This document shows, one piece after another, positions 31,128 through 64,000 of a stretch of 64,000 bases of DNA. Within the stretch, counting starts at the first letter, position 1. Each line of letters starts with the position of its first letter. This DNA comes from Spirochaetia bacterium (GTDB lineage Bacteria; Spirochaetota; Spirochaetia; DSM-2461). A model generated the notes under the pieces. The model saw nothing but the letters and a program-made list of their open reading frames with translations. It was not told the origin of the DNA and searched no databases. Location of the stretch: assembly GCA_963666985.2 (NCBI GenBank), contig CAXXIA010000002.1, positions 2,240,001-2,304,000 of the forward strand, in the 5' to 3' direction. The position numbers and the translations under genes were made by a program.

Positions 31128-31136
31128 GTGCGATTC

Positions 31137-31781: not shown

Positions 31782-31855
31782 ATGTCCCTGTGTTTTTTAC
31801 TTCCGGCCGGAAAAGCGGCCGGAGGCCGGCTCATAAGATTTCATTTGGAGTATTC

Positions 31856-36104: not shown

Positions 36105-36172
36105 TTCATGGAAGGCCGCCGGTCTTATGGATAATCTTCAGGCTATAAAAGTGTTTCCCGCGGTGGCCTGCG

Positions 36173-36299: not shown

Positions 36300-36353
36300 T
36301 TATACTCTCGACAATCATAAACATAATCCATCCGTCATACGAGGAGAATTACC

Positions 36354-37691: not shown

Positions 37692-37862
37692 CCTGCGATT
37701 GCGTTAGGGTGATTTCCCGCTTTACGGCGCGGCCGTTTCGGCTGCGAATGTGGAGCGGGATATTCGTTATTAAGGCCGGCGTGAGCCGGCCGCCGATCTC
37801 CGGAGGGGATTGGTGAAGAACTCGCCGGCAGGCGAGATCAACAAAAAAGAAGAGGGAAAACA

Positions 37863-42666: not shown

Positions 42667-44697
42667 TCAGAGAGCCAAAGCCGCCTCGTACGCGGCCCTG
42701 ACGGCTTCAAGCATGTTTCTCCTGCCGGAAGATCCTCCGATGACAGATACCTTTTCGCTGTTTATGGTAAGAAGTTCATTAAGATGGTCTTCTTGAGGAA
42801 GAAACCGAGTTTCCACCACAGCGTCGGCGGGGATTTCCATTTGAGATCCGTCTTCCGCCATAACATCGGCCGATCCGCGGCGAATCCGAAGTATGCGATG
42901 CTTCGTCAGAATTTTCACTCCGAGCTGATCCAATCGAGCTTTGTAAACCCATCGGCTGCTGGGACTGATATGTTCTCCCGTTCCGGAACCTTCCTCAACG
43001 ATGGTAATGTCGCTGCAAACGTCCGTAAGGAGATTCGCCGTCAATTCGGGGCTTTCCGCCTGAAAGAGCGTAAGAAAGTGAAATTGCTCGGCATTCAGCG
43101 CTCCTCGGCCGGCCAGCTTAAGGGCCGTCCAGACTCCCGGAGAATCGCCTCCGGCGATCAGAATTCGCCGCCCGGCAACGGACCGGTCCCGCAGAACATC
43201 GGCGGCGTGGATTACGGGAATGCTTCCGTCCGTCTCCAAATCCGATTCGGCCGCGATATCTCCGGCGGCCAGTACCACCCGGTCGAATTCTCCGGCATTT
43301 AAAGCTTCTCCGACGATTTCCGCAGTCGCCGGTTTTTCGGTGAAAATTGGGATTCGGTGGTTTCTGCAGGAACGGATCAGCCAAGAGATGTACTCGGCGA
43401 TATTTTTTCGTTCCCGAATTCCTGCGGCAAGAAGCGCCTGGCCGCCCAACGTGGAATCCCGTTCCCAGACTGTTGGCCTGTGTCCTCGGGATGCGGCGAT
43501 GAGGGCGTATTCCAGTCCCGCGACTCCTCCGCCGATAACCAGGACGGACTGCGGCGGCCGCTTCGATATTTCGTCGTCGGTGATTTCAGGAAATTCGGAT
43601 TCCCGACCGGCTTCCGGATTCACCAGGTAGGAAATGGTCTTTCCGTAGAAAATCCGGTCCATGCAGCCCTGGTTGCAGCCGATACAGGGACGAATTTCTT
43701 TATAGCGGCCCGAGGCGGCTTTCTTCGGGAAATCGGGATCGGCCAGGAAACTTCTGGCAAAGCCGATGAAATCGACCGAACCGGAATCCACGAGTTCTTC
43801 GGCCGTTTTCGGAGTCATTCTGTTGGAGAGAATAACCGGGATTTTTACGGCCTGTTTAATTCTTTTTTCCTGATAGGCAAGAAATCCGTTGGGGACGTCC
43901 ATGGTAAGCTGCGGAACGCCGCTCTCATGCCATCCGCCCGTAATGCCGAGGGCGTCCGCGCCGAAAGTTTCCAATGCGGATGCAATCCGGAGAGATTCCT
44001 CGGATGTGTTTCCGCCCTTCATGAAGTCGTTGGCCCCCATGCGAACGATGAGAGGGAATTCCTCTCCGGCGGTTTTTCGAACCTCGGCGATGATTTCCCT
44101 GAGAAAGGTCAGGCGATTTTCCAACTCCCCTCCGTATCGGTCACCGCGGAGATTGGTCAGGGGAGAGAGAAATTGAGCGGGAAGATACCCCGATGCCGCG
44201 GTGATTTCCACCCCGTCGAAGCCCGCCTGCAGGGCCCGCCGCGCGGCGGCTCCGTAATACCCGATAATGTCGCCGATTTCATCCTCCGTCAGTTCACGGG
44301 GTGTTTCCCGAGTGAATCGGGACGGAACCGCCGATGGGGCAACCGCGACCTGACCTCCGTATTCGGCGGAACGGGCATAACGTCCGGCATGGAAAAGCTG
44401 GAGAAAGCCGCGGCAGTCATATTCGTGAAGAACGTCCGCGAGACGCTTCAGTCCCGGAATAAAGCGATCGTCGTATACCCCGATGACATTATGGGTGTTG
44501 ATTCGAAGCGGATCGATACCGGAGGCTCCTACGATGAGAAGCCCGCATCCGCCGGCGGCCCGGCGGCGGAAATATTCCAGAAGCGTCGGATTCACTTTTC
44601 CGTCATCGCTTAACGCGGTGTGCATCGCCGTCATCAGAATGCGGTTTTTTATTCTCAATCCGCCGATTTGTCCCGGTGTATAGAGATTGGACAACAT
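42667..44697 (-). CDS. FadH-like (2,4-dienoyl-CoA reductase/enoate reductase) flavoenzyme
   Basis: OYE barrel (QLFHAGR, GYL..QFLSP.TN.R.D.YGG), CIGCNQGC, GGGVAG; GGAG RBS. Confidence 0.85.
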   Translation of the reverse strand: MLSNLYTPGQIGGLRIKNRILMTAMHTALSDDGKVNPTLLEYFRRRAAGGCGLLIVGASGIDPLRINTHNVIGVYDDRFIPGLKRLADVLHEYDCRGFLQLFHAGRYARSAEYGGQVAVAPSAVPSRFTRETPRELTEDEIGDIIGYYGAAARRALQAGFDGVEITAASGYLPAQFLSPLTNLRGDRYGGELENRLTFLREIIAEVRKTAGEEFPLIVRMGANDFMKGGNTSEESLRIASALETFGADALGITGGWHESGVPQLTMDVPNGFLAYQEKRIKQAVKIPVILSNRMTPKTAEELVDSGSVDFIGFARSFLADPDFPKKAASGRYKEIRPCIGCNQGCMDRIFYGKTISYLVNPEAGRESEFPEITDDEISKRPPQSVLVIGGGVAGLEYALIAASRGHRPTVWERDSTLGGQALLAAGIRERKNIAEYISWLIRSCRNHRIPIFTEKPATAEIVGEALNAGEFDRVVLAAGDIAAESDLETDGSIPVIHAADVLRDRSVAGRRILIAGGDSPGVWTALKLAGRGALNAEQFHFLTLFQAESPELTANLLTDVCSDITIVEEGSGTGEHISPSSRWVYKARLDQLGVKILTKHRILRIRRGSADVMAEDGSQMEIPADAVVETRFLPQEDHLNELLTINSEKVSVIGGSSGRRNMLEAVRAAYEAALAL

Positions 44698-44804
44698 AGC
44701 TCCTCCCTTTGCATAGCGGTACTCATTCACGAAGCTGAAAAGACAATCGGGAAAATCCTTTTCTTCTTACAAACCGCCGACGATTAACTATGAATTATAT
44801 ACGT

Positions 44805-44882
44805 GAGGTGATTTCAAAAAACGTTGATTTTTGAAACAAAACCCTTCTAAAACAAAACCGGAAGGATTTCGGCCATCGGATA
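44805..44882. repeat. Dispersed intergenic double-hairpin repeat, copy 2
   Basis: TTTCAAAAAACGTTGATTTTTGAAACAAAACCCTTC...GGAAGGATTTCGGCCATCGG. Confidence 0.7.
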
Positions 44883-44935
44883 TCTCACATGAGATAAGAT
44901 TCCGGGACGCCGAATGACGTCCCGGAAGAGAATTG

Positions 44936-45697
44936 TCAGTAAAGAGTCGTCCCGTGATCCACGTAAAGAATCTGACCGGTTATCGCCTTGGAAGCATCAC
45001 TGGCGAAAAAGAGGATGGCTTCGGCCTGATCTTCAACATGAGCTTCGGGAACGGAAAGGTCGATATGTTTGGCGCAGGCGTCGGCGAATTCCTTATTAAA
45101 TGTTTTAAACGCTTCGGGAGCATTCAGCGGAGTGGGTGTTGGGCCGGGGGCTACGGCGTTGCAGCGAATGGCCGTGGGGGAGTATTGAAGAGCGATGTTC
45201 TTCGTCATGCTGTTCACGGCGGCCTTCGCGGCGCTGTAGGAAATCCCCGCCAAACCCTGGCTTCCGATGGAAGAAATGTTCACGATGGAACCTTCTCCGG
45301 CCTTGGTCATGTGTTCCAGGGCGTATTTGCTCATGTAATAGACCGAATACTGATCGATCTTGCAGACGGTGTCGTACCATTCTTCGGTGCAGAGATCGAT
45401 GGGCATGTGCTTGTCGGCGATTCCCGCATTATTCACCAGAACATCGATGCGTCCGTATTTTTCAATGGCCGCATCGACGATTTTATGACAGTCTTCCGAT
45501 TTGGAGACATCCGCCCGCACCGCGATTCCTTCGCCGCCGAGAGCTTCGACTTCAGCCAGAACTTTTTTGTTCTCTTCATCGCGTCTTCCGCAAAGGACGA
45601 CTTTAGCCCCTTCCTTTGCGAACAATTTGGCCGTTGCGCGACCGATGCCGGAATTGCCGCCGGTAATAATGGCGATTTTATTTTCCAATCTTCCCAT
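44936..45697 (-). CDS. Short-chain dehydrogenase/reductase (probably NADP-preferring)
   Basis: TGGNSGIG, CGRR, NNAG, S...YSAAK; GAGG RBS. Confidence 0.9.
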   Translation of the reverse strand: MGRLENKIAIITGGNSGIGRATAKLFAKEGAKVVLCGRRDEENKKVLAEVEALGGEGIAVRADVSKSEDCHKIVDAAIEKYGRIDVLVNNAGIADKHMPIDLCTEEWYDTVCKIDQYSVYYMSKYALEHMTKAGEGSIVNISSIGSQGLAGISYSAAKAAVNSMTKNIALQYSPTAIRCNAVAPGPTPTPLNAPEAFKTFNKEFADACAKHIDLSVPEAHVEDQAEAILFFASDASKAITGQILYVDHGTTLY

Positions 45698-45887
45698 GCT
45701 GTTAAACCTCATTTAATGTAAATTGATATAAATGTATTATATTGGGTGTCCAATTCGACGGACCTATCATTTTTCGACATACCGATATCGTTTTTTGTTA
45801 TGCATCTTGCGGGCTGGAATTTCATCTTCTATCGTAACATCAGATTAATATACGCGATTCAAAACGAATCGGGAGGTTTTATTATTT

Positions 45888-46883
45888 ATGATTAAAGCTA
45901 ATTACGAATCTGATGCCGGCAAGAGGAAGGAAATCTCTCACGAAGAGCTTTACACGATTCCCCACATGCCCTTCGAAGAGTATTCCGAGAAGTTGAAAGA
46001 CTGTATCAAGATGACGAGAAAAAACGGCATTCTTGAAGCAAGAATGCATACCAACGGCGGACCCGTTCAGTGGGGAGCCGAACTTCATCAGGGCCTTCAC
46101 TACTTTTTTGACTGGGCCGGCCGGGACCCCGATAACGAGGTTATCATCCTTGGCGGAATCGGCCCCGATACCTTCAAGGGAATCGGCCGTATCAATAAGA
46201 AAACCGGCGAGTGGATGCCCGCCCGCGAGTTCGGATCCGAACCTGAAGAATCCTGGAAAATGTACGAGTACCAGTACTATGACGGTACCAACGATATTGA
46301 AGGACAGGTCTTCGATCTTGAAGTTCCTACCATCGGCGTATGGACCGGTGCTTCCTACCATACCGACCTGCTTCTTTTCAGCGATATCACCCTGGCCACC
46401 GCGGATGCGTGGACGACCGAAATGCACTTCCGGACGAACATGGTTCCCGGAGACGGCATCCAGATTGCCTGGCGGGAACTCATGGGCCGCAAGCGCTTTG
46501 CGTACGCCGAGCTTACCGGTCAAATCATCACCGCCAAGAAAGCTCTTGAATACGGGATGATCAATGAAATCTGCGATGATGTCGATGCCGCTTACAAACG
46601 AGCTTGGGAAATCGCCGAACTCATCATGCATGCCGCCGGCCGTGTTACCAGAAGAATGACCACTCAGGTTTTGAGAATGCCTTGGAAAGAGGATATTTCC
46701 AAAGAGCTCAGAAGCAGTTTCGCTACCGAGATGTTTGTTACCGCGACCGATCATTCTCCCCATGAGGCCAAATACTGGGACGATGCTCACGAAGAAGCCG
46801 CGCTCGTTATGGAAGCCGAGAAACAGGGCAAGGTTGTTCGGCCGAAAATCGGCGGCGGCCAGTTTGAAAAAGAAATTAAATAA
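45888..46883 (+). CDS. Beta-diketone hydrolase (6-oxocamphor hydrolase-like), copy 2
   Basis: Close paralog of 21421-22413 with the same HF...VPGDG motif; GGGAGG RBS. Confidence 0.75.
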   Translation: MIKANYESDAGKRKEISHEELYTIPHMPFEEYSEKLKDCIKMTRKNGILEARMHTNGGPVQWGAELHQGLHYFFDWAGRDPDNEVIILGGIGPDTFKGIGRINKKTGEWMPAREFGSEPEESWKMYEYQYYDGTNDIEGQVFDLEVPTIGVWTGASYHTDLLLFSDITLATADAWTTEMHFRTNMVPGDGIQIAWRELMGRKRFAYAELTGQIITAKKALEYGMINEICDDVDAAYKRAWEIAELIMHAAGRVTRRMTTQVLRMPWKEDISKELRSSFATEMFVTATDHSPHEAKYWDDAHEEAALVMEAEKQGKVVRPKIGGGQFEKEIK

Positions 46884-46890
46884 CGCTTAA

Positions 46891-46955
46891 GGCGAGTTCA
46901 AAAAACGGCGTTTTTGAAGAAGCCCTTCTTCAAACGGAAGGGTTCCCGCCGTCGA
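46891..46955. repeat. Dispersed intergenic double-hairpin repeat, copy 3
   Basis: TTCAAAAAACGGCGTTTTTGAAGAAGCCCTTC...GGAAGGGTTCCCGCCGTCG. Confidence 0.65.
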
Positions 46956-46980
46956 ATGTGTTTTCGAGATTATTAAAGGG

Positions 46981-47012
46981 CCGTCGATTTTTTTCTCGAC
47001 GGTCTTTTTTTT
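46981..47012 (+). terminator. Intrinsic terminator
   Basis: CCGTCGA...TCGACGG stem followed by TCTTTTTTTT. Confidence 0.6.
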
Positions 47013-47082
47013 ATGCGACAATAGAGCCGAAATCGCCGGGCCGTCGGGATTTTTCGGTCCGGTTATCGCCGGGGAGCCGCAA

Positions 47083-48846
47083 ATGTCACGAAGAGCCATT
47101 CATTTGAACGTCCTTACCGTGCCGTCGTTCGCTGTTGTTTCTCTTGTCCCTTTTGGAATACTCGTTTTGATGCGGACAGGATCTTTTTTCGAATCCAGCT
47201 TCTTTCTTAAAGAGCCGGTTTACGGATTTCTTTTCGCGGCCGCCGTTTCACTTCTCATCGGCATCGCGGCAGGGTTGATTTATTCGCGATGCATTTCCCG
47301 CGGCTTGCACCGTGTTGAAAGGCTGGTGGAAGAGGCCGGAAAAAACGAGGCCGGAGAATATGCGAAAACAGTATCCCGTATTGGTGAGATTTCCTCCGTG
47401 GCGCGGAGCCTTCGGGGGAAATTGCTGCCGAGGCTGGCGAAAGTGTTCAATGAAATAGGAAATGCCGTGACGCTGAACTCAAAGACTTCGATTGTCGCTA
47501 AGGATTACGCCGGTGATGTTTGGAACATTGCCGACGGAATCTCGCGTGATGTCGGCGGGATTCTTCAAGAAATGTCGGAATTGAAGAATCAGATCGTCAA
47601 TTCTTCATCGGCCGTAGCCGAAATCCAGGCCACTCTGGAAGCATTGATGGGGCATATGAACAGCCAGGACGGGGCTTTGTCCCGGACTTCGCTTTCCGTC
47701 AGACGCATGGATGCTTCCCTTACCGATATATCCGAGGTTTATACGGAGCAGTCCGTTTCCACCGATTCGCTGCTCGGCACCTTGGATGAGGGGAAAAAGG
47801 CCGTTGCCGAATCAAACGAGTGTATCCGCGAGATTTCCGTAAATATCGACGATATGATGAGCATTATCGGTGTAATCAACAGTATCGCGGATCAAACGAA
47901 TCTGTTGGCTATGAACGCCGCCATAGAAGCGGCTCACGCGGGAACCGCCGGCAAAGGTTTTTCCGTTGTGGCCGATGAAATCAGAAAACTCGCCGAATCC
48001 ACAGCCGAAAACTCCCATGTTATTTCATCTTCGCTGACGGCGGTCAACGGTAAAATGAGCCGCGTTCTTCATTCCGGAAAAGAAAGTGAGAAATCTTTCT
48101 CGGACGTAACGGAGAAAGTTTCTGATTTCGTGGCCGCGTTTAAGCGCATCGCCGAGAGCACGGCGGATATTTCCGCGGGAAGCCGCGAAATCTTGTCTTC
48201 CGTTGAACGGCTCAACGCGATGTCCGGCGAGATAACCGCCGGATCGTCCGAAATCACCCAGAGCGCTCATGAGATAAACGATGCCATGAGTAAGGTTCAG
48301 GATTCCTATAATCGGGTAACGGACGAAGTCGCCGTGGTTAATTCCCGCGCTCAAGACATCGGTAAGGCGCAGCGGGATCTGATGAAGATTATCGATTGGG
48401 ATTCGAAGAATATCGCCGAAATCGGCAAGAGTCTCAATACATGTAATTTCGGTTCTTTCGGTGAAACGGTCGGTGAAACAGATATTGCCGATGCCATCGG
48501 CGATATCATGCTGACGATGCTGGCGCGGGTGGAGAATGCGGGAGATTCCATTCGGAGTCTTACTGTTGCCGAAATGAATATTAAGATTGATGTCGATGAT
48601 GTGCGGAACAGCGAAAACTGCGGCGTCGGGCGCTGGCTTTCGGGCGAGGGAGCCCGCCTTTTGGGCTCGTTTCCCGGGTTTGACGAGATTGTCGCGGATC
48701 ATAAGCATTTTCACGAAAGCATTGTTCAAACGGCTTCCAAGATAGAAAACGCAACCTTTAATGAGGCGTTCGCTTCGTTCCGAGTCGCGAGAGGCTATTA
48801 TAATAGGCTGATAACCGGCTTTATCGACATTATTGATCATCTTTGA
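47083..48846 (+). CDS. Methyl-accepting chemotaxis protein with C-terminal CZB-like domain
   Basis: MCP hairpin tip; C-terminal C.VGRWL...H..FH pattern. Confidence 0.9.
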
Positions 48847-48862
48847 AAAGAACGGAAAAATT

Positions 48863-50026
48863 ATGACGCATACCGGTCGAGAGAAACTGTGGACCGGGCA
48901 GTTTATCCTTATTTTAACGGCGAATTTCACCGCTTTGATGGTGAACGCCCTGCTTCTTGTCTCAATACCGCTTTATTTAAGGGCGATGGGAGCTTCCAAT
49001 ACGGCGGCCGGACTGTCGACCGGTCTGTATTCTCTGGCCGCGATGACTCTGAGGCCGATCGTCGGGCATTTTCTTGATTATCGGGGAAGAATCCGGCTGA
49101 TGAGAGGCGGCTTGATTCCCATGATTGTCGGCATCATCCTTTCGAATTTTACCGATGCCGTTCCTCTGCATTTGGCCCTTCGCGTTCTTGAGGGAATCGG
49201 TTTTTCCGTTGTATCCACCGCGGGAGCGACGATCGTTTCGGACTTGGTGCCGGAATCAAGAATAACCGAGGGCATAGGATACAACGGCGCGGTGGCGACT
49301 CTTACCAACGCCGTCGGACCTCTTGTCGGTCTTGTTCTAATCGACGGATTCGGATTTGCCGTTCTTTTCACCTGTCTGATTCCGATGTCGCTGCTTCCTC
49401 TTGCCGTTTCTTTGTTCTTGAAGGAGAGCGTCAATCCCTCCGCGGCATCCGGAGAACGGACCGGATTGAAGCATCTTTTTGATTTGGAAAAAGGAGCATT
49501 GCCGGCTTCTGCCATGATGATTTTTTCCGCCGTATCTTACGGGGCCGTTGTAACATTTCTGGCGGCATTTGGAATGGAACGGGGAGTGGAAAACATGCAG
49601 TTCTTTTTTGTTCTGTTTCCGTGTACGGTGGTTGTTTCCCGCTTTTTTTCCGGCAGGCTTATCGACGGATACGGATATTTGCCGGTTGTTGTTCCTTCCC
49701 TTATCATCGGAGCGTCTTCCCTTGTTCTTATTTTCTTTGCCCGCACCGTGGCGATGTTTTCTCTTGTCGCCGTTTTATACGGATTGGGGTACGGCATTCT
49801 GATGCCGGCCTTTAATGCGCTCGCCGTACGGAATTCATCTCCGAACCGCCGGGGAGCCGCGAACGCCACGTTCTACATCGCGTTGGATTTGGGAATCGGC
49901 GGAGGCGCGATTTTTCTGGGATTGTTTTCAAATTGCTGGGGTTTGGCTTCAACTTTTCTTATTTCGGCGTTCTTCATGATTTTCAGCTTCGCCCTTTTTC
50001 CGTTTCTTGAGCGGAAGCGGCGCTGA
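48863..50026 (+). CDS. MFS transporter
   Basis: About 12 TM segments, G.FLD..GR motif A, RRGAANATF. Confidence 0.9.
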   Translation: MTHTGREKLWTGQFILILTANFTALMVNALLLVSIPLYLRAMGASNTAAGLSTGLYSLAAMTLRPIVGHFLDYRGRIRLMRGGLIPMIVGIILSNFTDAVPLHLALRVLEGIGFSVVSTAGATIVSDLVPESRITEGIGYNGAVATLTNAVGPLVGLVLIDGFGFAVLFTCLIPMSLLPLAVSLFLKESVNPSAASGERTGLKHLFDLEKGALPASAMMIFSAVSYGAVVTFLAAFGMERGVENMQFFFVLFPCTVVVSRFFSGRLIDGYGYLPVVVPSLIIGASSLVLIFFARTVAMFSLVAVLYGLGYGILMPAFNALAVRNSSPNRRGAANATFYIALDLGIGGGAIFLGLFSNCWGLASTFLISAFFMIFSFALFPFLERKRR

Positions 50027-50160
50027 TCGTTAAAGGCCGGAAAGTGAAAAACAATTTCGGAAATTATCGGAATGCGGAATGTATACGGATTTATTTAAAT
50101 GATTCTTGGAGAAGGATATAGTTCATGATTCAGGCGTTGACGCCGGCAATCGTGATTAAC

Positions 50161-50175
50161 CTATAAAACCGACCT
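50161..50175 (+). promoter_or_regulatory. Candidate activator site CTATAAAACCGAC upstream of BKACE operon
   Basis: Identical 13-mer at 61231-61243. Confidence 0.5.
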
Positions 50176-50369
50176 CCGAAAGTACAAATTTGAACGTTGC
50201 CGCCCACTTGCCGACGCAGCATAGTTAATTTATCACTTCAGTTAGGTTGTGCACCCGGGGTTTTATGTATCCCCGCATTACTTGAATTCCGACTGTTGTT
50301 AACCAAAGACCGATAACGCCTGAAACGGTTGGTCTTTGTTCAAAACTCAAAGAATTAGGAGATATCATT

Positions 50370-51197: not shown

Positions 51198-51212
51198 GGA
51201 AGGGGTTGATTT

Positions 51213-52376: not shown

Positions 52377-52386
52377 GGCGGTCGGC

Positions 52387-55194: not shown

Positions 55195-55210
55195 GGAAGG
55201 AGAACCTCAA

Positions 55211-56806
55211 ATGGGAATAGGAACTTACGACGAATATAAAGAGCGTCTTCTGAAAATGAAGCCCAACGTGTATCTGAACGGAGAGAAAGTCGACCGTTCA
55301 GGAGACTGGATCGACGGCGGCTGCTATGTTATGAAGCAAACTTATGATGCGGCCAACGATCCGGAATATGAAGATTTATGTACGGCCACGTCTCATCTCA
55401 CCGGGAAAAAGATCAGCCGCTGGACCCACATCCATCAGAGTCAGGACGACCTGATGAAGAAGCAGATGATGACCCGTGTTATGTGTCACCGGGTCGGCGG
55501 CTGTACCCAAAGATGTATGGGCACCGATGCCATGAACGCTTTGGCCGTTGTTACTTACGACATGGATCAGGCCTGCGGAACCAAATATCATGAACGTTTT
55601 AACAAGTATCTGGAGTACGCCCAGGAAAAAGACCTTGTAATCAACTGCGCGCAGACCGATGTTAAAGGGTCGCGAAATCCGAAGTATAAAAGAGCCCACA
55701 TGCAGCCGGATCCGGATCAGTTCCTGCATGTTGTTGAAACCAATGTTGACGGCATCGGAATCGATGGAAAACCCTGTAAGGGAATCATCGTTCGCGGCGC
55801 GAAAATCTGTAACTCCAACGCGCCTTATGTTGATGAAATTATCGCCACGCCGACCAAGTTTATGGGCCCGGGCGACGAGGCCTACGCCGTTTCCTTCGCC
55901 ATTCCCGGAGACTGGGACGGAGTTAAGCTGATGGCTCTTCCCGGAAAGCATCATGAAAGAAAGCATATCAAAGCTCCTTTCGCGGACGTCGGCGATGTTG
56001 AATCCTTAACCATTTTTGATGATACGTTTATTCCCGAAGACCGTGTGTTCATGAACGGTTTCGATCAGGAAGACGTGCTGATGTATGCCGGTTATCTTGC
56101 CCTGATGTTCGCTCACTTTCACAGACATTCTTACACCGGATGTAAAACGGCGGTTTCCGAGTGTATCGCCGCGCAGGCCGCGCTTGTCGCCGATGTGAAC
56201 GATATTGCTCAAGAGCACCATGTCAGAGAGAAAATTTCCGACATCGTCGGTACGGCCGAGCTCGTTTTCGCGGCCGGTCAGGCTTCGGCACTCAGGGCAA
56301 CAAAATTCCCCAACGGCTCGTATGTCCCCGACGAAGTTCTCACCAACGCGGGAAGGAAGCTTGCCGGTCAGAAAATTTATCATGAGTATGAAACCCTCGC
56401 CGATCTCACGGGCGGTATCTGCGCTTCGCTGCCTACCGAGGAATCGTTCTATGATCCGGAAACAGCCGACCTCTGCAACAAGTACATCATGCGGAATCCG
56501 GCCTATACCGCCGAGCAGACGCACCGGGTTATGCGGATGATGGAGAACAAACTGTGCGACGCCTTTGAAAGCGCTCAAGCCGTTGCCGGCGTTCACGGAG
56601 GCGGATCTCCCCTTATGGAAACCATCACCATGATGTCCCGCTACGATTTGGAACCGCTCAAGGATATCGCCAAGTATCTGGCCGGATTTGAAGGCTATGA
56701 AAAATGTCCCCGTTATGAGAGGGCCACGGCAACTCCGAGAGCCATGCTGGACAGATTCGCGGCGATCAAAGCTAAGAAAGCGGCCGCGGAAAAGAAAGAT
56801 AAATAG
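55211..56806 (+). CDS. 4-hydroxybutyryl-CoA dehydratase (AbfD)-like protein, copy 1
   Basis: CTQRC and HRHSYTGCK [4Fe-4S]-ligand motifs, TDVKG.R, HGGGSP. Confidence 0.85.
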   Translation: MGIGTYDEYKERLLKMKPNVYLNGEKVDRSGDWIDGGCYVMKQTYDAANDPEYEDLCTATSHLTGKKISRWTHIHQSQDDLMKKQMMTRVMCHRVGGCTQRCMGTDAMNALAVVTYDMDQACGTKYHERFNKYLEYAQEKDLVINCAQTDVKGSRNPKYKRAHMQPDPDQFLHVVETNVDGIGIDGKPCKGIIVRGAKICNSNAPYVDEIIATPTKFMGPGDEAYAVSFAIPGDWDGVKLMALPGKHHERKHIKAPFADVGDVESLTIFDDTFIPEDRVFMNGFDQEDVLMYAGYLALMFAHFHRHSYTGCKTAVSECIAAQAALVADVNDIAQEHHVREKISDIVGTAELVFAAGQASALRATKFPNGSYVPDEVLTNAGRKLAGQKIYHEYETLADLTGGICASLPTEESFYDPETADLCNKYIMRNPAYTAEQTHRVMRMMENKLCDAFESAQAVAGVHGGGSPLMETITMMSRYDLEPLKDIAKYLAGFEGYEKCPRYERATATPRAMLDRFAAIKAKKAAAEKKDK

Positions 56807-57064
56807 TCCGATGCATCAAAGCGGCAAGCCGTGCTGAGGCTTGCCGCCGTTATTGAGAAGGACGGAACCATGCTGATAAAAACGATTCTTTCTTGCGCCG
56901 ATGCCGAGGGCGGAGCTTCCGGCGGTTGGGCCTTTCCGTGACGTTTTTAATGGTTCCGAGAAAAGGCGCGGCCGAGGCTGCGGGAAAAAGGACGGCCGAA
57001 GGCGGCGCCGCCGAAGATGAAAGAAATCAGCCGGTTTGAAAGAACCGGCAGGGAAGTGATTATT

Positions 57065-58609
57065 ATGGGTATTGGAACATACGACGAATACAAGAAACGG
57101 CTTGAGGCGATGAAGCCGAACGTCTATATGGAAGGCAAAAAGCATGACCGGAAAGGCGACTATATGCGGGGCGGTCTGTATGTACTCAAGCATACCTACG
57201 ACTGCGCCAACGATCCTAAGTATGAAGATGTCTGTACGGCCACATCGCATCTTACCGGAGAAAAAATCAATCGCTTTACGCACATTCACCAATCCAAGGA
57301 AGATTTGCTGAATAAGCAGAAGATGACCCGGCTTCTTTGCCACCGTGTGGGAGGCTGCATTCAGCGCTGCATGGGCACCGATGCGCTGAACGCTCTGGCC
57401 GTCGTTACTTACGACTGCGATCAGGCAAACGGTACCGGATATTACGACAGATTTTTAAAATACCTGGAATACGTCCAGAAAAACGATATTGCCGCCAACT
57501 GCGCCCAGACCGACGTGAAAGGCATCCGCGGCGTTCGTCCGGCCGATCAGCCCGATCCCGATCAGTACCTTCGCATCGTGGAAACACGCGAGGACGGCGT
57601 GGTGGTTCGGGGAGCCAAGGTCTGTAATTCGGCCGCTCCTTACATGGACGAGATTATCGCTCTGCCCACGCGCTTTATGGGACCCGGCGAGGAGGAATAT
57701 GCTATTGCCTTCGCCCTGCCCGGCGACTGGGAAGGCATTAAGATCATGGGACTCCCGGGACTCCAGGCCAAAAGGAAGCATCTTGATGCGCCGATTGCCA
57801 ACGTCGGCGACGTGGAGTCCATGACCATCTTCGACGATGTGTTCGTTCCCAACGACCGGATTTTCCTCAACGGACTTGAGAATCCCGACAACACGCAGTA
57901 CGCCGGATACCTGGCGCTGATGTTCGCCCACTTCCACCGCCATTCCTACACCGGCTGTAAAACCGCCGTATCCGAAGTTTTGGCGGCTCAGGCCACTTTG
58001 GTTGCCGATGTGAACGGCGTTCTGAAAAAGAGTCATGTTCAGGAGAAGATTTCTCATATCATCGGAACCGCCGAATTGGTTTTTGCCGCCGGGGAAGCTT
58101 CGGCTCATCGCGCGGTCCGGTTTCCCAACGGTTCCTGGGTTCCCGATGAAATTCTTACCAACGCCGGACGCCGTTTGGCGGGACATGAAATCTACAATGA
58201 ATACTCCATCCTCGCGGATTTGGCCGGCGGAATGAGCGCTTCACTGCCTACGGAGGAATCCTACTACGATCCGGAAACGGCGGAACTGGTGGCCAAGTAC
58301 ACCAAAAGGAATCCTTCCTATTCGGCCGAGGATGCTCACCGGTGTTTCCGGATGATGGAAAACAAGCTCTGTTCGCCTTTTTCCGGCGCGGAGATGGTTG
58401 CGGGCGTTCATGGCGGCGGTTCCCCGCTGATGGAGACCATCACGATGATGGCCCGTTACGATTTGGAGCCGCTTAAGGACATTGCCAAGTATCTCGCGGG
58501 CATCAATGAAGATATCCCCCGGTATGAGCGTCCCACCATGACGCCGCGGGCCATGCTGGACAAGTTCAGGAAAGCCAAAGAAGCCGCTGATAAGAAAGGA
58601 AAGGAATAA
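57065..58609 (+). CDS. 4-hydroxybutyryl-CoA dehydratase (AbfD)-like protein, copy 2
   Basis: CIQRC, HRHSYTGCK; close paralog of copy 1. Confidence 0.85.
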   Translation: MGIGTYDEYKKRLEAMKPNVYMEGKKHDRKGDYMRGGLYVLKHTYDCANDPKYEDVCTATSHLTGEKINRFTHIHQSKEDLLNKQKMTRLLCHRVGGCIQRCMGTDALNALAVVTYDCDQANGTGYYDRFLKYLEYVQKNDIAANCAQTDVKGIRGVRPADQPDPDQYLRIVETREDGVVVRGAKVCNSAAPYMDEIIALPTRFMGPGEEEYAIAFALPGDWEGIKIMGLPGLQAKRKHLDAPIANVGDVESMTIFDDVFVPNDRIFLNGLENPDNTQYAGYLALMFAHFHRHSYTGCKTAVSEVLAAQATLVADVNGVLKKSHVQEKISHIIGTAELVFAAGEASAHRAVRFPNGSWVPDEILTNAGRRLAGHEIYNEYSILADLAGGMSASLPTEESYYDPETAELVAKYTKRNPSYSAEDAHRCFRMMENKLCSPFSGAEMVAGVHGGGSPLMETITMMARYDLEPLKDIAKYLAGINEDIPRYERPTMTPRAMLDKFRKAKEAADKKGKE

Positions 58610-58624
58610 GACGAGGATAACGTT

Positions 58625-59482
58625 ATGGAAATAAAAACGATTGGTGTATTAGGTGCCGGAGCCATGGGCGGAGGTATCGCCCATCAGGCGGCGATGTGCG
58701 GATTTAATGTCATTCTGTGCGATATCGACCAAAAATTTGTCGACGGCGCCGTTGAGCGCGCGGCAAAGCTGATGGACAGAAAGATTGAAAAAGGGAAGAT
58801 GACCGAGGACGAGAAGAAAGACGTTCTCGGCCGCATGACGACAAGCATCGATAAAAAAGATTTTGCCAAGGCCGATTTTATCATTGAGGCAATAATCGAG
58901 GATCTTGAAATTAAGCGGAGTGCGTTCAAGGAACTTGATGAAATTTGCCGGGAAGATGTGATTTTGGCGACCAATTCATCTTCCATGTCCGTAACCACCA
59001 TCGCGGCCGCGACGAAAAGAGCGGACAAAGTCATCGGAATGCATTTCTTTAATCCTCCCCAGGTTATGAAGCTTGTCGAGATTATCAAAGGATATGCCAC
59101 CAGTGACGAAACTCTGGAGAGTGTGAAAAAACTTTCCGAGGCGCTGGGGAAAGTCAGCATTGTCGCTCAGAAGGATACTCCGGGTTTTGTCGTCAACAGA
59201 TTGCTCTTCGCCCTCTTTACGGAAGCCATGAGGATGGTGGATGAAGGTGTTGCGTGTCCGGAGGATATCGATACGGGCCTGAAACTTGGCCTCGGGCATC
59301 CGATGGGTCCCTTTCAGCTTATGGATGAAATCGGCGGATTGGATTTGGCCACCTCCGTTTTGACGTATTTCTATGAAGAAACCAAAGATTCCAAGTGGGC
59401 CATCCCGCATAACATGAAGTCTCTTGTACGCGCGGGAAGATTGGGAAAGAAAACCGGCGCCGGCTGGTACGATTACAGCTGA
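58625..59482 (+). CDS. hbd: 3-hydroxyacyl-CoA dehydrogenase
   Basis: GAGAMG, ATNSS, GMHFFNP, PGFVVNR, HPMGP, G.LGKKTG.G.Y.Y. Confidence 0.9.
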   Translation: MEIKTIGVLGAGAMGGGIAHQAAMCGFNVILCDIDQKFVDGAVERAAKLMDRKIEKGKMTEDEKKDVLGRMTTSIDKKDFAKADFIIEAIIEDLEIKRSAFKELDEICREDVILATNSSSMSVTTIAAATKRADKVIGMHFFNPPQVMKLVEIIKGYATSDETLESVKKLSEALGKVSIVAQKDTPGFVVNRLLFALFTEAMRMVDEGVACPEDIDTGLKLGLGHPMGPFQLMDEIGGLDLATSVLTYFYEETKDSKWAIPHNMKSLVRAGRLGKKTGAGWYDYS

Positions 59483-59539
59483 CGTTTTTTAACTCGTCCT
59501 CTTGCCGGAGTCGTTGACTCCGGCCTTGTGGGTCTCCGT

Positions 59540-59579
59540 GCCGGCCGTGCGGCCGCGAGCCGCAGCGGCCGGTTTTTTT
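59540..59579 (+). terminator. Intrinsic terminator of the catabolic operon
   Basis: GC-rich CCGGCCG...CGGCCGG stem followed by TTTTTTT. Confidence 0.7.
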
Positions 59580-59688
59580 ATCGGACCGTTATCAGTTGAA
59601 ATCTTTACGTACCGCAAATCGGACTTTATCCTTCAAATAACGGGATAGGAGATTGCGGGAATCTGTTATTATATAAAGGGGCTCGCGT

Positions 59689-61203
59689 TTGTTTCGATTG
59701 AATGATAAGGGGAAGTGGACGAATCGATATAAAGCTCTCGGAAGCATCATCGCTGTGTTGGGGGTAGCCGGTATTGCGGGTGTTGTTACCGGAATAATCG
59801 GCCCCGGCGAAACCGGAAATGTTCCGACGGTGGTTTTCGGCGCTTTAACGGCGATTCTCGCCGCCGGCGCTTTATTGCTGCTGATTGAATATCGTAAACT
59901 CGGTTCCCGGGCCCGGGAGCTTGCCAGAAAAGTTAATCTCCACCCCGATATCTCATCCAAACAGGCTTTCTCGGATCTTGACGATGAAATCGGCCGACTC
60001 AATCTCATCGACAGGGACCATTACTTTATCCGGCTGATGAAGGATAGAAGTTCGGATCATCGTCCCATTCTCAAGGAATTGACTTTCTACGGTGTCGATT
60101 TTCCTTATGAGGGATTCATCCTTGTTTCTTTTAATGCCTGCCGCCAGCAGGCAATGAATCCTCCGCAAAACATCAGGACGCGGGATTATCTTGTTCGGGA
60201 TGTTCTTGAAAGGACGCTGCCCGAGGATTTTGTTTCGTATGTTCTGGATTTGGAAGATCTTTATATCTGTCTGTTCAACGTTCCCTATGAAGCGGAGCCC
60301 GCGGGTGTCCGAAAAATAAAGAAAGAAATGGAGGTTTATGCCCTTCGTGTCATAAAGAGGATTGATGAAAGTTTTGACCTTCACACAAGTGCTTCAGTTA
60401 GTGAGCTCCACCGGGGTTTGGAGTCACTTCCGGATGCTTTTCTTGAAGTTCAGGGATTATTTAAATACAGAAACATTACCGGCAACAACGCTTCGGTTCT
60501 GCATTATATGGCTTACTATATCAGCTTCGAGAGCTGGTATGAGTTCGGCAGCACGTATAATAAATTCGACGAAGTTCGTCAGCTGATCACCAGTATTCAG
60601 GTTGGAGACTTTGCGAATGCCAAATTGCTTATCAATGATTTATTCGAGAACGACTACTCCCGCAAATATCCTACGCTGATTCTTGCCCGCTGCAGGCTCT
60701 ACGGCGTTATCGATGCGGCCATCAATGCCATGGGACTATTGAAGGAAGAACTTGACGAGGATTTCTTAAGAGAACTGAATCCGGCAACACGGATTGTAAA
60801 CTGCAATACGTATACCGAGCTTCAGGCGGAACTTGATTCCATTTTTGACGCCATAATCGAATACTATTCCCGGAAGAAGAAGGACAGTCCCCCCGAATGG
60901 TTCGAGACCATTCAGACGTATATTGATAAACACTACAACGACATGGACATCAACGTGGCGACGATTGCGGATCATTTTAAGATCAGTTCGGCCTATTATG
61001 CCCGTGTCTTCAAGAAATACACGGGGATGTCGCCTCTGGATTATATTCATAAGCTCAGAATGCGCAGCGCGAAGCGGCTGATGGGAAAAGGCGTGAGCGT
61101 CAAAGACGCCGCCACCATCGTCGGATACGGCAGTCCCATTACGATGAGCCGTGCTTTTAAGCGTTATGAAGGCGTTACTCCGGGAAGCTACATCAAACGC
61201 TAG
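59689..61203 (+). CDS. AraC-family regulator with two N-terminal TM segments
   Basis: C-terminal double HTH (YYARVFKKYTG.SP; VGY...RAFKRYEGVTPG); TTG start uncertain. Confidence 0.85.
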   Translation: MFRLNDKGKWTNRYKALGSIIAVLGVAGIAGVVTGIIGPGETGNVPTVVFGALTAILAAGALLLLIEYRKLGSRARELARKVNLHPDISSKQAFSDLDDEIGRLNLIDRDHYFIRLMKDRSSDHRPILKELTFYGVDFPYEGFILVSFNACRQQAMNPPQNIRTRDYLVRDVLERTLPEDFVSYVLDLEDLYICLFNVPYEAEPAGVRKIKKEMEVYALRVIKRIDESFDLHTSASVSELHRGLESLPDAFLEVQGLFKYRNITGNNASVLHYMAYYISFESWYEFGSTYNKFDEVRQLITSIQVGDFANAKLLINDLFENDYSRKYPTLILARCRLYGVIDAAINAMGLLKEELDEDFLRELNPATRIVNCNTYTELQAELDSIFDAIIEYYSRKKKDSPPEWFETIQTYIDKHYNDMDINVATIADHFKISSAYYARVFKKYTGMSPLDYIHKLRMRSAKRLMGKGVSVKDAATIVGYGSPITMSRAFKRYEGVTPGSYIKR

Positions 61204-61210
61204 CCGAACG

Positions 61211-61245
61211 TATTAAACCGACCTTCCCATCTATAAAACCGACTC
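61211..61245 (+). promoter_or_regulatory. Tandem direct repeat TAT(T/A)AAACCGAC with 21-bp period; candidate AraC site
   Basis: TATTAAACCGAC at 61211 and TATAAAACCGAC at 61232, upstream of 61298. Confidence 0.55.
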
Positions 61246-61297
61246 TTAAAGAAAGATCTGTATTCCAGTAGTATTTCACTTAGATAACAGGAGTTAG

Positions 61298-63394
61298 GTG
61301 TTGGACGAAATTGTATTGAGCATCGACGGCGTCGAAGTGCCATCACGGAAAGGCCAAAGCATTCTTGATGCGTCCTTGGAAGCCGGAATTTATATTCCTC
61401 ATATTTGTTCTCATCCCGATTTGTCCTCTCAGGGCGAATGCAAGCTTTGCGTGGTGGAAGTCGACGGAGAAACGAAACTCTCGTGTCGGACCGAAGTTCG
61501 GCAGGGTCTGTCGGTTACGACGAAGTCGGATCATCTGCAGCATCTGCGTGTTACGGCGCTGGAACTGATGCTGGCCGGTCATCCTCATGACTGTACGTCC
61601 TGCGTGGTGTATCTCAACTGCGAGCTCCAGGCGATGATGCAGTATCTGGGAGCCGTTCATGCCCGGATGCGGAGTGTTCACAAGAAGAATAACGCGGTTA
61701 ATACGAGAAACCCCATTATCATCCGTGAATTGGAGCGGTGCATTCAGTGCGGACGATGCGTTCGGGCCTGCGAAGAGCTTCGCGGCGTCGGAATTCTTGA
61801 ATACCGAAACAGAGACGGTGAAAGCTACATCGGAACGGCGGACGACAAGCCTTTTATGGAAGCGGATTGCCGGTTTTGCGGGGCCTGTATCGCCGTTTGC
61901 CCGACCGGCGCCCTCAGAATGGATACAAAACTCAGTTCCGAGGCCGTGCCCTGCCGTTCGGAATGCCCCGCTCACGTGGATATCCCCCGTTATGTCCGTT
62001 TCGTGAAGGAAGGCCGTTACGGCGAGGCCGCTGCCGTTGTGCGGGAAAAGGCGCCGCTGCCGCTTTCTCTCGGCTATGTCTGCAGTCATCCCTGCGAAGA
62101 GGTCTGCCGCCGGGAAGAGTTGAATCGGGCCGTTTCCATACGTGAAATCAAGCGTTTCGCCGCCGAGAACGATACGCGGGGATTCTGGAAAGAACACCAT
62201 GTGAAAAAGAGCCCGACCGGAAAAAAAGCCGCGATTATCGGCAGCGGCGCGGCCGGTCTGACGGCGGCCTATTATTTAAGTACGGCCGGACACGATGTGA
62301 CGATTTTTGAACGGCTTCCGGTTGCGGGCGGCATGATGTCCACCGGAATCCCCGAGTATCGTCTGCCGAGAAATGTCGTTCAATCCGAAATCGATGTTAT
62401 TCTTGAAAATGGCGCCCGGCTGGTTACATCGCGGAATATTGAAACGGTTGATGAGCTTTTTAACGAAGGCTTCGATGCCGTTTTGGTTGCCGTCGGCGCT
62501 TCGGTCGGTAAAAAACTCGGTTTCCCCGGTGCGGAGAACGAACAAGTTTATTCCGCCGTTGATGTTCTTCGGGCGGCATCTCTGGGAGAAAAAGTTGCTC
62601 TGGGCAATCGCGTAACCGTTCTCGGCGGAGGGAATGTGGCTTTTGATGCGGCCCGTGTCTGTGTTCGCCTCGGCGTGGAAGAGGTGAATCTTGTCTGCCT
62701 GGAACCCGAGGGGGGGATGCTGGCCGATGAAGAAGAAATCATTCAGGGAAAGGAAGAAGGCATCAACATTCTTAATTCCAAAACGACTTTGGAACTTGAA
62801 ACCGAAAACGGGAACCTGAAAGGTGTTCGGGTTATTGATGTGGCGGAATTTTCCTTCGGTCCGGGAGGAAAACTCGATTTAAAAACCGTGGAAGGTTCGG
62901 AAACCCTGATTCCTTCCGATACGGTGATTTTCGCGGTCGGCCAGAAAACGGACTTGTCGGATGATTTCGGCGTTGAATTAACGCCGTTCGGATATGCGCA
63001 AGTCGCCGAAGGTGCGTTCGCCGCAAGCCGGGAAGGCGTTTTTGCCGCCGGCGATGCCGTTACCGGAACAAAATTCGTTATTTCGGCCATAGCCGGCGGC
63101 CGGAGCGCCGCGGCGGAAATGGATCAGTTCCTGGGCGGAACGGGAGAGATCGACGAGGTGCTGGCTCCTGTTGAAATCCCCGATGGAAAAATCGGAATAC
63201 TCGAAGGTTTTTCCGCATTGCGGCGGGAAGATGTTGATTATATCGGAGCGGACGAACGGAAGGCGGGATTCGCAGAAATCAGCTGCGGCTATGATGAATG
63301 CCGGGCTCGCGATGAAGCTTCGCGATGTCTTCAGTGTGATTTGCGTCTGAATATATCAAAAACCAAGTTATGGACGGACTATATCAAGACATGA
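61298..63394 (+). CDS. Fe-S flavoprotein: NuoG/HydA-type N-terminal Fe-S domains fused to GltD/NfnB-like FAD/NAD(P) domain
   Basis: C..C..C 2Fe-2S, H...C..C....C, two CxxCxxCxxxC, PC..ECP, GSGAAG, GIPEYRLP, GGGNVA, EA.RC..C. Confidence 0.85.
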   Translation: MLDEIVLSIDGVEVPSRKGQSILDASLEAGIYIPHICSHPDLSSQGECKLCVVEVDGETKLSCRTEVRQGLSVTTKSDHLQHLRVTALELMLAGHPHDCTSCVVYLNCELQAMMQYLGAVHARMRSVHKKNNAVNTRNPIIIRELERCIQCGRCVRACEELRGVGILEYRNRDGESYIGTADDKPFMEADCRFCGACIAVCPTGALRMDTKLSSEAVPCRSECPAHVDIPRYVRFVKEGRYGEAAAVVREKAPLPLSLGYVCSHPCEEVCRREELNRAVSIREIKRFAAENDTRGFWKEHHVKKSPTGKKAAIIGSGAAGLTAAYYLSTAGHDVTIFERLPVAGGMMSTGIPEYRLPRNVVQSEIDVILENGARLVTSRNIETVDELFNEGFDAVLVAVGASVGKKLGFPGAENEQVYSAVDVLRAASLGEKVALGNRVTVLGGGNVAFDAARVCVRLGVEEVNLVCLEPEGGMLADEEEIIQGKEEGINILNSKTTLELETENGNLKGVRVIDVAEFSFGPGGKLDLKTVEGSETLIPSDTVIFAVGQKTDLSDDFGVELTPFGYAQVAEGAFAASREGVFAAGDAVTGTKFVISAIAGGRSAAAEMDQFLGGTGEIDEVLAPVEIPDGKIGILEGFSALRREDVDYIGADERKAGFAEISCGYDECRARDEASRCLQCDLRLNISKTKLWTDYIKT

Positions 63395-64000
63395 TTCAGT
63401 GCGAGAAAGAAAAAATCGATTTACCCGATACATCGGAAATCCTCGAAAAGGCCGAAACGGTTTGTCCGGTGGATTGGGCCCTTGCCGTCGCGGATAAAGC
63501 ACGGCGGGAATCCTGCGGGAAATGCGTCATGTGCCGGGAAGGAACTCTTCAGCTGTATACGATCATTTCCGACATCGTGAGCGGTAAAGGTGAATCGGAC
63601 GATCCGGATTTAATCCTCGATTTGTGCGGAGTAATCGGGGAGGCGGCCGATTGTGAAATGGCCCGAGAGGCATCATCGCTGATTCGATTGTCTTTGGAAA
63701 CGCACAGAGACGATTGGAACGCGCATATTCTGCGCAAGCGCTGCCCCGCTCTGGTTTGTTCCGCGTATATCACCATCGCCGTTAAGCCCGATCTCTGTAA
63801 AGGTTCCGGAGAGTGTGCCAAGGTTTGTCCGGAAAATGCCATAGCCGGTTCCGAGGGATTGATTCATGTGGTGGATGCGGCCCTCTGTACGCGGTGCGGG
63901 GCCTGTATCGAGGCGTGTCCCCATGGAGCGGTGGGAAAATTCGGAGTCGTTGTTCCGAAAACACCGGATAAACCTGTTCCGGTCGGTTCTTTCGAGGGGG
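63391..64000 (+). CDS. NuoF/HydB C-terminal-like Fe-S protein with 2[4Fe-4S] ferredoxin domain (runs off window)
   Basis: ATGA overlap with previous stop; hand translation gives CPVD...ESCGKCVMCREG, H...K.C...C and C..C..C...CP motifs. Confidence 0.8.
   Translation, partial: MIQCEKEKIDLPDTSEILEKAETVCPVDWALAVADKARRESCGKCVMCREGTLQLYTIISDIVSGKGESDDPDLILDLCGVIGEAADCEMAREASSLIRLSLETHRDDWNAHILRKRCPALVCSAYITIAVKPDLCKGSGECAKVCPENAIAGSEGLIHVVDAALCTRCGACIEACPHGAVGKFGVVVPKTPDKPVPVGSFEG

Follow-up and report, generated by a model that had tools for sequence, protein, structure and literature searches.

In the accessible portions of two 2026 reviews, Flavonifractor plautii is described as cleaving the A ring of diarylpropan-2-ols by enzymes still unidentified as of 2026, and five-carbon ring-fission products are put at about 42% of the epicatechin that humans take in an oral dose (PMC13674436, PMC13515148). 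A third source, as far as its accessible part goes, describes (S)- and (R)-4-hydroxy acids formed from catechin and epicatechin and attributes the conversion of 4-hydroxy-arylvalerate to the deoxy acid to uncharacterized bacteria (PMC11887054). Phloroglucinol itself is degraded in Clostridium scatologenes by a pathway comprising PGR, DPGC, TfD, TAL, thiolase, and CtfAB (PMC10470551, accessible part). Here, we describe a gene cluster in a 64,000-nucleotide stretch of a Spirochaetia bacterium genome (the window, G000:C2:2240001-2304000, where G000 is the host genome; coordinates below are window positions unless stated otherwise). The cluster, at 42667 to 64000, combines a relative of 6-oxocamphor hydrolase (OCH) with two variants of 4-hydroxybutyryl-CoA dehydratase (AbfD). 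From the gene identities, residues, and co-occurrence that we observed, we infer every reaction and substrate of a pathway that would, rather probably, ferment flavan-3-ols of the catechin type via A-ring fission.

The hydrolase (45888-46883, + strand) has 6-oxocamphor hydrolase 1o8u as its best sequence match in the Protein Data Bank (PDB) (E 1e-29). Its structural model (pLDDT 78.7) adopts the crotonase fold, and Foldseek ranks 1 to 10 are all OCH or Anabaena beta-diketone hydrolase (TM 0.67/0.88). The original prediction, made by a model from the letters of this DNA, had named an OCH-like hydrolase here, and these matches bear it out. Residues H67, H158, H180, and D189 align to OCH H45, H122, H145, and D154 and are invariant in 15/15 aligned relatives from three OCH types; we take the His145/Asp154 dyad of OCH, together with His45 and His122, to be catalytic, and His122 also appears in the title of entry 1szo. 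E281, the position at which we sought an equivalent of the presumed OCH residue Glu244, is likewise invariant (15/15), but the 1o8u alignment stops short of it and is in a different register from the 2j5g alignment. The ESM Atlas returned only generic ECH_1 clusters. We conclude that it is probably an OCH-like beta-diketone hydrolase (here type A), predicted to act by CoA-independent retro-Claisen chemistry and to open the A ring.

A metagenome scan with this hydrolase identified 60 loci, 17 of which are at least 10 kb long. A beta-keto acid cleavage enzyme (BKACE; at least 55% identity) and a two-subunit CoA-transferase are each present in 13/17 of these long loci, a thiolase of the window type (at least 55%) in 11/17, and orthologs of the short-chain dehydrogenase/reductase (SDR) of the window (at least 50%) in 9/17, or 15/60 when all loci are counted. 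Two thiolases occur in 11/60 loci. The remainder of the module consists of a major facilitator superfamily (MFS) transporter, a LysR regulator, and a Phenol_MetA_deg outer-membrane channel, and neither AbfD nor a 3-hydroxyacyl dehydrogenase was found in any long locus (0/17 each). A lookup by name in the clusters of 10 proteins, nine of them OCH-related and one an AbfD, gave among its sources Lonepinella koalarum, Brenneria goodwinii, B. nigrifluens, B. tiliae, and Gibbsiella quercinecans, as well as Acerihabitans, Sodalis, Tolumonas, and Eikenella. We presume that L. koalarum, Brenneria, G. quercinecans, and Acerihabitans occupy tannin or bark niches.

Because BKACE needs a 3-keto acid and is the most constant neighbor of OCH, the ring product should be a 3,5-dioxo acid rather than levulinate. 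The presence of BKACE beside OCH in 13/17 long loci that all lack AbfD suggests that the steps of BKACE and thiolase likely fall after OCH and before AbfD. A longer 3-oxoacyl-CoA, and thus a substituted ring, is suggested by the second thiolase. The 4-hydroxyacyl-CoA is then likely the remainder after the thiolase step. By our analysis, the OCH core module is the gene set that a substituted 3,5-dioxo acid would need, and it mirrors the phloroglucinol pathway in the accessible part of PMC10470551. The original prediction had proposed another route, in which a cyclopentane-1,3-dione is opened to levulinate, reduced by the SDR to 4-hydroxyvalerate, activated by Buk/Ptb, and dehydrated by AbfD to pentenoyl-CoA. 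This route is chemically coherent, Ptb and Buk do lie in the operon, and the Glu455→Ala change described below could give room for a C4 methyl. However, the levulinate it would form has no keto group at C3, and the route leaves the most constant OCH neighbor without a substrate; nor does it account for the lack of AbfD in long OCH loci, the F. plautii cluster, or a phenolic-reductase-like partner, both described below. We consider it very unlikely, and Ptb and Buk more likely serve an ATP-yielding release of the end product than the activation of hydroxy acids.

The two dehydratase genes carry the second half of the argument. AbfD1 (55211-56806, +) has 4-hydroxybutyryl-CoA dehydratase 1u8v as its best PDB match (E 1e-84), and its model (pLDDT 94.7) has the same entry as best fold (TM 0.85/0.92). 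Copy 2 (57065-58609, +) is 70% identical to copy 1 in the alignment and lies on a separate branch in the tree. A GTDB scan for AbfD confirmed 141 stretches, the best 80 of which yielded 72 loci, and a representative search added distant lineages. Among 175 aligned near-full-length sequences, 92 with more than 60% identity make up a subfamily that we will refer to as AbfD*. All 92 keep the 4Fe-4S ligands C99, C103, H292, and C299, as well as E257, Y296, and K300. E455, which we take to protonate C4, is replaced by Ala in 89/92 (the rest being two gaps and one Pro), A460 by Gly in 90/92, and T190 by Ser in 92/92. AbfD1 carries all three substitutions (Glu455→Ala, Ala460→Gly, Thr190→Ser), and neither window copy has Glu455, a feature the original prediction overlooked; of the 83 sequences outside the subfamily, four of canonical type retain E455, A460, and T190. 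The accessible part of a preprint reports T190, E257, Y296, and E455 as important for activity and E455 for dehydration. With the E455 side chain gone, a C4 substituent could fit or the product could differ. Judged by its residues, AbfD* probably works like AbfD, yet we do not class it as AbfD because T190 and E455 are both changed. Full-text searches of open-access PMC and bioRxiv (subscription papers were outside the scope) found no description of this AbfD variant and no link of an OCH-like enzyme to phloroglucinol or valerolactones.

Within the 72 loci, AbfD* neighbors include SDRs (52), Hbd-family proteins (38), Crt (30), and acyl-CoA dehydrogenases (14), and more rarely BKACE (12), PTE-family lactonases (8), and OCH (6). 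In Sporomusa, Desulfitobacterium, and Enterocloster, AbfD* lies near lactonases, CoA ligases/transferases, or acyl-CoA dehydrogenase/electron transfer flavoprotein (ETF), and a true OCH was not found in five named AbfD* holders with the type-A query. Lactonases and ligases near AbfD* without OCH are as expected of cross-feeders on valerolactones. A tree of AbfD* (FastTree, rows containing X left out) shows mostly lineage-specific duplications rather than one ancient alpha/beta pair, and the idea of an obligate heteromer was dropped. A third OCH with a third AbfD-like gene at C2:522-530 kb was rejected as a second coupling, as the AbfD-like protein has no cysteine ligands. At that locus (L003, G000:C2:522324-529700), the OCH is of type B, and the AbfD-fold protein near it lacks the Fe-S cysteines and has Glu at the Ala460 position, presumably as in acyl-CoA dehydrogenases; a whole group of such proteins is present in the alignment. 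Dozens of further AbfD-fold lineages (P0124-P0268) keep the Fe-S ligands and vary at positions 296, 455, and 460, and by their residues they are a possible pool of radical dehydratases.

OCH and AbfD* co-occur in two lineages with different OCH types. All seven spirochete AbfD* carriers have a type-A OCH, four in the same locus and three elsewhere in the genome. Locus L040, which has a single AbfD copy, is syntenic with the window starting at the SDR and continuing past the Fe-S pair, and L010, L038, and L061 keep OCH, SDR, and AbfD in rearranged orders. The co-occurrence of hydrolase, SDR, and operon expected by the original prediction is thus found in other genomes. Neither OCH nor AbfD* was found in 300 sampled genomes of the phylum (0/300), and AbfD* is absent in 40 relatives of the host genome. 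The other lineage is the Oscillospiraceae (the family of G045), of which 301 genomes were counted by eye at thresholds of at least 69% identity for AbfD* and at least 73% for type-C OCH, with two AbfD matches of 59-61% identity, and five genomes whose OCH-like matches were all at 33-37%, counted as negative. Both genes occur in 29 genomes, AbfD* only in 5, OCH only in 9, and neither in 258; type-C OCH is therefore present in 29/34 genomes with AbfD* versus 9/267 without. Relatives of G271 carry the trait unevenly (7/61). Coupling of ring cleavage to 4-hydroxyacyl-CoA dehydration, the core of the original prediction, remains the best reading, whereas the dehydratase it assumed is non-standard at E455 and T190.

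A flavoprotein of the FAD_binding_2 family tracks the pair. It is encoded past position 64000 together with a second old yellow enzyme (OYE) and an MFS transporter (G000:C2:2304151-2308836), a group that the earlier reading did not mention, and in L038 and L061 the flavoprotein/OYE pair is kept together with OCH, SDR, and AbfD. Its best NCBIfam match, vinylphenol reductase, is below cut-off. Orthologs are present in 27/29 genomes with both OCH and AbfD*, 1/5 with AbfD* only, 3/9 with OCH only, and 0/24 controls; none was found in G416 or G419, and G415 has a 47% homolog. By its distribution, the protein would fit C-ring opening.

The link to F. plautii comes from the gut type of OCH. Type-C OCH adjoins AbfD* in L036 and L037, and among the proteins in its clusters are some that carry the names F. 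plautii and Coprococcus catus. The valerolactone idea preceded the protein-name lookup, which then showed F. plautii proteins in the gut OCH type. The OCH of genome G416 matches an F. plautii protein at 100% identity along 235 residues, as far as a 10-base assembly gap; no such 100% match was found in 60 relatives of G271. The G416 cluster encodes, in order, LysR, MFS, a 426-residue protein, a 3-hydroxyacid dehydrogenase, MFS, CoA-transferase, thiolase, OCH, OCH, and BKACE, the last 57% identical to the window BKACE. G416 has only a canonical AbfD at 36%, and AbfD* was not found there, which fits an organism stopping at the 4-hydroxy acid. The 426-residue protein (L186:1902-3182, -) also occurs in G415 and is a candidate for the ring reductase absent from that cluster. 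Monophyly of the window and gut BKACEs was dropped, as the joining node is open in the BKACE tree, and we use identity and motif instead.

In the proposed pathway, the FAD_binding_2 reductase would open the C ring, converting catechin to a diarylpropan-2-ol. The SDR (44936-45697, -; Pfam adh_short, likely NADP(H)-type, divergent from OCH) would reduce the ring, unless the keto tautomer is cut directly; we take it to be the ring reductase and/or a 3-hydroxy-5-oxo acid dehydrogenase. OCH would hydrolyze the C-C bond adjacent to the alkylated carbon of the C-alkyl-phloroglucinol A ring, and re-oxidation would give HOOC-CH2-CO-CH2-CO-CH2-CH2-CH(OH)-CH2-Ar. BKACE with acetyl-CoA would release acetoacetate and a 3-oxoacyl-CoA, and thiolase would then yield acetyl-CoA and 4-hydroxy-5-arylvaleryl-CoA. 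With the two C2 units removed by BKACE and thiolase, the former propanol hydroxyl would land exactly on C4 of the arylvaleryl-CoA. AbfD* would dehydrate this compound to an enoyl-CoA, Crt, Hbd, and thiolase would shorten it to 3-arylpropionyl-CoA, and Ptb/Buk would convert that to arylpropionate and ATP. In F. plautii-type clusters, the CoA-transferase would instead pass CoA to acetoacetate and free the 4-hydroxy acid or lactone. By our arithmetic, catechin + 4 H2O = 3-(3,4-dihydroxyphenyl)propionate + 3 acetate (C15H22O10 on both sides) would be redox-balanced, with NADH from the window route balancing C-ring opening. Because diarylpropanol + 3 H2O = 4-hydroxy-arylvalerate + 2 acetate involves no net redox change, reducing and re-oxidizing the ring would just cycle the cofactor. 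Gut AbfD* is flanked by two SDRs, orthologs of which are encoded in G000 at C2:2660-2662 kb; speculatively, these SDRs might interconvert the two 4-hydroxy enantiomers.

Could the ring be plain phloroglucinol? The original prediction had offered six-membered phloroglucinol-derived diones as alternatives, and the class appears right. No cyclase-family gene was found by family scan in 42667-64000, and three lie elsewhere in G000. The window BKACE (50370-51197, +; PF05853, E 1e-107) has Val at the position of Kce Glu14 and triacetate lyase Trp16 in the 2y7d alignment, as do most OCH-linked BKACEs, and it may cleave a long 3,5-dioxo acid. Two other G000 BKACEs, both on C1, have Trp there, one near a cyclase and one adjoining a dehydrogenase. 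With separate cyclase-family and Trp-type BKACE genes in G000, plain phloroglucinol seems to be served elsewhere and is the less likely substrate. Also in favor of the catechin reading, G000 has a pyrogallol transhydroxylase homolog (4v4c, E 2e-140), whose cluster at C2:2690-2707 kb encodes a cyclase, 3-hydroxyacyl dehydrogenase, BKACE, thiolase, and CoA-transferase; this locus (L181, G000:C2:2690146-2707304) contains two molybdoenzyme pairs, of which the one searched is pyrogallol-transhydroxylase-like, and an SDR that is no clear PGR ortholog.

These genes bear on the possibility that two modules have simply been joined, with OCH-SDR-BKACE-thiolase forming a second plain-phloroglucinol route and AbfD*-Crt-Hbd-Ptb-Buk serving unrelated gamma-lactones or 4-hydroxy acids. 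Each module is indeed found without the other, and cyclase genes now and then adjoin OCH (L087, L157). Yet cyclase-family genes are already present in 5/5 OCH-bearing genomes searched, Trp-type BKACEs are encoded elsewhere in G000, plain phloroglucinol would not call for a second thiolase, and genome-level co-occurrence is strong in two lineages. We regard a joining of independent modules as improbable.

A different possibility is that the same logic applies to another substrate, such as an acyl- or methyl-phloroglucinol, a phlorotannin fragment, a pyrone, another cyclic tricarbonyl, or intact catechin cleaved while its C ring is still closed. With intact catechin, the Glu455-less AbfD* could expel a 5-hydroxyl to give a 2,4-dienoyl-CoA for the FadH-like OYE, and orthologs of that OYE (38-48%) do adjoin AbfD* in three other taxa (L018, L041, L051). 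The distance between type A and type C OCH (30% identity) and the type-A modules of Gammaproteobacteria and high-GC loci, which lack AbfD and dehydrogenase, also point this way. On the other hand, most such substituents would yield no 4-hydroxyacyl-CoA, and a separate reason would be needed for AbfD* and the FAD_binding_2 reductase to track OCH in both lineages. The OYE itself (42667-44697, -; FadH/BaiCD-type, Pfam Oxidored_FMN + Pyr_redox_2) appears damaged in this strain, while the remainder of the cluster is intact. In this strain's contigs its fourth 4Fe-4S ligand is Tyr (codon 43627-43629, - strand), a change the original prediction missed, whereas a related strain has a Cys codon at 43628 and the three orthologs keep Cys (3/3). 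The OYE is therefore likely impaired by a strain-specific loss and would be accessory. We consider another substrate unlikely, although less so than the joined modules, and continue to favor the C-alkyl-phloroglucinol A ring of catechin-type flavan-3-ols.

Several observations weigh against the catechin reading. The closest non-spirochete orthologs of the window OCH (75-82%) lie in modules without AbfD or 3-hydroxyacyl dehydrogenase (0/17 each), and OCH lies within 10 kb in just 6/72 AbfD* loci. Redox genes around ring opening differ, type-A modules having an SDR without a dehydrogenase and G416 the reverse, with no SDR found in the 40 kb examined around its cluster. The lack of a dehydrogenase in type-A modules implies either that one SDR covers both redox steps or that the ring is cut unreduced, and neither has a precedent in the literature examined. 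Phloroglucinol reductase 5g4k is not among the PDB matches of the window SDR down to 1e-35, and the SDR is no PGR ortholog; PDB searches gave no identity for the SDRs, and for the gut SDR beside OCH, 5g4k is merely the fourth match. Since E455 is reported as important for dehydration in the accessible part of the preprint, AbfD* may catalyze another reaction. The window OCH and the F. plautii type share only 30% identity, so their substrates may differ, and Coprococcus catus also has the gut OCH, while one 2026 review, in its accessible part, names only Flavonifractor for A-ring fission. The tallied Oscillospiraceae are kin rather than independent, which overstates the significance of the tally, and canonical AbfD is also linked to OCH, more weakly (5/39 versus 4/228). 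Finally, a 47% homolog of the FAD_binding_2 protein in G046, which has AbfD* and in which OCH was not found, argues against an upstream role for this flavoprotein.

The remaining genes complete the layout. Gene calls combine an open reading frame (ORF) listing with Pfam/NCBIfam family scans, and starts were refined from ribosome-binding sites (OYE 44697 on the minus strand, SDR 45697, Crt 54415, second AbfD 57065). All genes named in the original prediction for 42667..64000 are intact and in the order it gave. A hairpin lies between OYE and SDR (44927-44900). Downstream of OCH are a methyl-accepting chemotaxis protein with a CZB-like domain (47083-48846, +; Pfam), relatives of which adjoin AbfD*/OCH in L010, L040, and L061, and an MFS transporter with an uncertain start (48833-50026, +; Pfam MFS_1), orthologs of which are in L009 and L040. 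BKACE is followed on the + strand by thiolase (51213-52376; Pfam/NCBIfam), phosphate butyryltransferase-like Ptb (52387-53295; PF01515, with NF006045 above cut-off), butyrate kinase-like Buk (53295-54425; TIGR02707 and NF002834 above cut-off), crotonase Crt (54415-55194; PF00378, E 1e-67), the two AbfD* genes, and 3-hydroxyacyl-CoA dehydrogenase Hbd (58625-59482; family scans), 3' of which lies a terminator-like hairpin (59550-59571). An AraC-family regulator with a hydrophobic N-terminus (59689-61203, +; Pfam HTH_18) has a 58% ortholog at the equivalent place in L040. An Fe-S flavoprotein with a NuoG-like N-terminus and a GltD-like domain (61298-63394, +; family scans), with a 68% ortholog in L040, may function in NAD(P)H electron transfer, and a NuoF-C-terminal-like Fe-S protein (63370-64000, +; family scan) extends 32 bases beyond the window end. 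A related strain's contig from a second study is collinear over 42680-59600. A promoter scan was at chance level (13 versus 15.9).

A second, stand-alone type-A OCH paralog (21421-22413, +), 71% identical to the cluster copy, was also overlooked by the original prediction, and spirochete genomes G452 and G453 likewise have two type-A copies. Elsewhere, short contigs carry a tandem of type-A and type-B OCH genes (L089, L097-L099, L103, L108, L116, L119, L120), and BKACE was not seen on them; the second hydrolase of these tandems might make a second C-C cut. G000 encodes about a dozen OYE/FadH-type flavoproteins and seven BKACEs, and in this genome (93% complete) the queries used detected neither an acyl-CoA dehydrogenase nor an ETF. 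By ORF reading, a separate cluster at 24569-39263 encodes a branched-chain-type ABC transporter, a DhaK/DhaL-like pair, a two-component system, and, both family-scanned, a class III aminotransferase and a SauS-like acylating aldehyde dehydrogenase.

We give roughly even odds to a broader proposal with three parts: that one organism carries a complete, redox-balanced anaerobic catechin fermentation; that tandem OCH, 3-hydroxyacid dehydrogenase, BKACE, thiolase, and CoA-transferase are the missing A-ring fission enzymes of F. plautii; and that AbfD* is a new radical dehydratase subfamily with which Oscillospiraceae, Enterocloster, Sporomusa, and sulfate reducers remove the 4-hydroxyl from acids derived from phenylvalerolactones. 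If true, this would provide named, clonable candidates for A-ring fission and for the conversion of 4-hydroxy-arylvalerate to arylvalerate, gene markers for producers and consumers of valerolactones from tea and cocoa flavan-3-ols, and a route by which condensed-tannin units might be turned over in the absence of oxygen. It would also widen the scope of ketyl-radical dehydration to 4-hydroxyacyl-CoAs that are secondary and bulky, in enzymes that lack the usual Glu455.

Taken together, the cluster is a real, conserved, uncharacterized pathway that resembles the phloroglucinol pathway and AbfD and belongs to neither. With 6-oxocamphor hydrolase of Rhodococcus (1o8u, 1szo) and the Anabaena beta-diketone hydrolase (2j5g), the window hydrolase shares its fold and its His/His/His/Asp set; it differs in its 29% identity, about 75 additional residues, and an anaerobic, BKACE-linked context rather than camphor catabolism. 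AbfD* shares fold, Fe-S ligands, E257, Y296, and K300 with AbfD/4HBD (1u8v, 6vjr) but has E455A, A460G, T190S, H188C, and Q294H at about 36% identity, is often duplicated, and has no 4-hydroxybutyrate dehydrogenase among its annotated recurring neighbor clusters. The window BKACE scores 328.6 bits against the cut-off of 382 for lysine-fermentation Kce (NF052387) and has Val for Glu14, and is thus not a member. FadH-type 2,4-dienoyl-CoA reductases have a four-cysteine 4Fe-4S motif, which the window OYE lacks. As described in the accessible part of PMC10470551, the C. scatologenes pathway would have in common with ours retro-Claisen ring opening, BKACE action on a 3,5-dioxo acid, thiolase, and CoA transfer. 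In the window, however, the ring opener is a crotonase-fold OCH relative rather than the Mn2+ cyclase DPGC, the SDR is no PGR ortholog, the BKACE has Val rather than the Trp16 of TAL, and an AbfD*/Crt/Hbd/Ptb/Buk arm is added. Finally, on the gut route that turns flavan-3-ols into phenyl-gamma-valerolactones (Eggerthella lenta Cber; F. plautii), as far as PMC11887054, PMC13674436, and PMC13515148 are accessible, our predicted intermediate 4-hydroxy-5-(3,4-dihydroxyphenyl)valerate is the reported product of F. plautii, whereas here a single organism would carry all of the steps.

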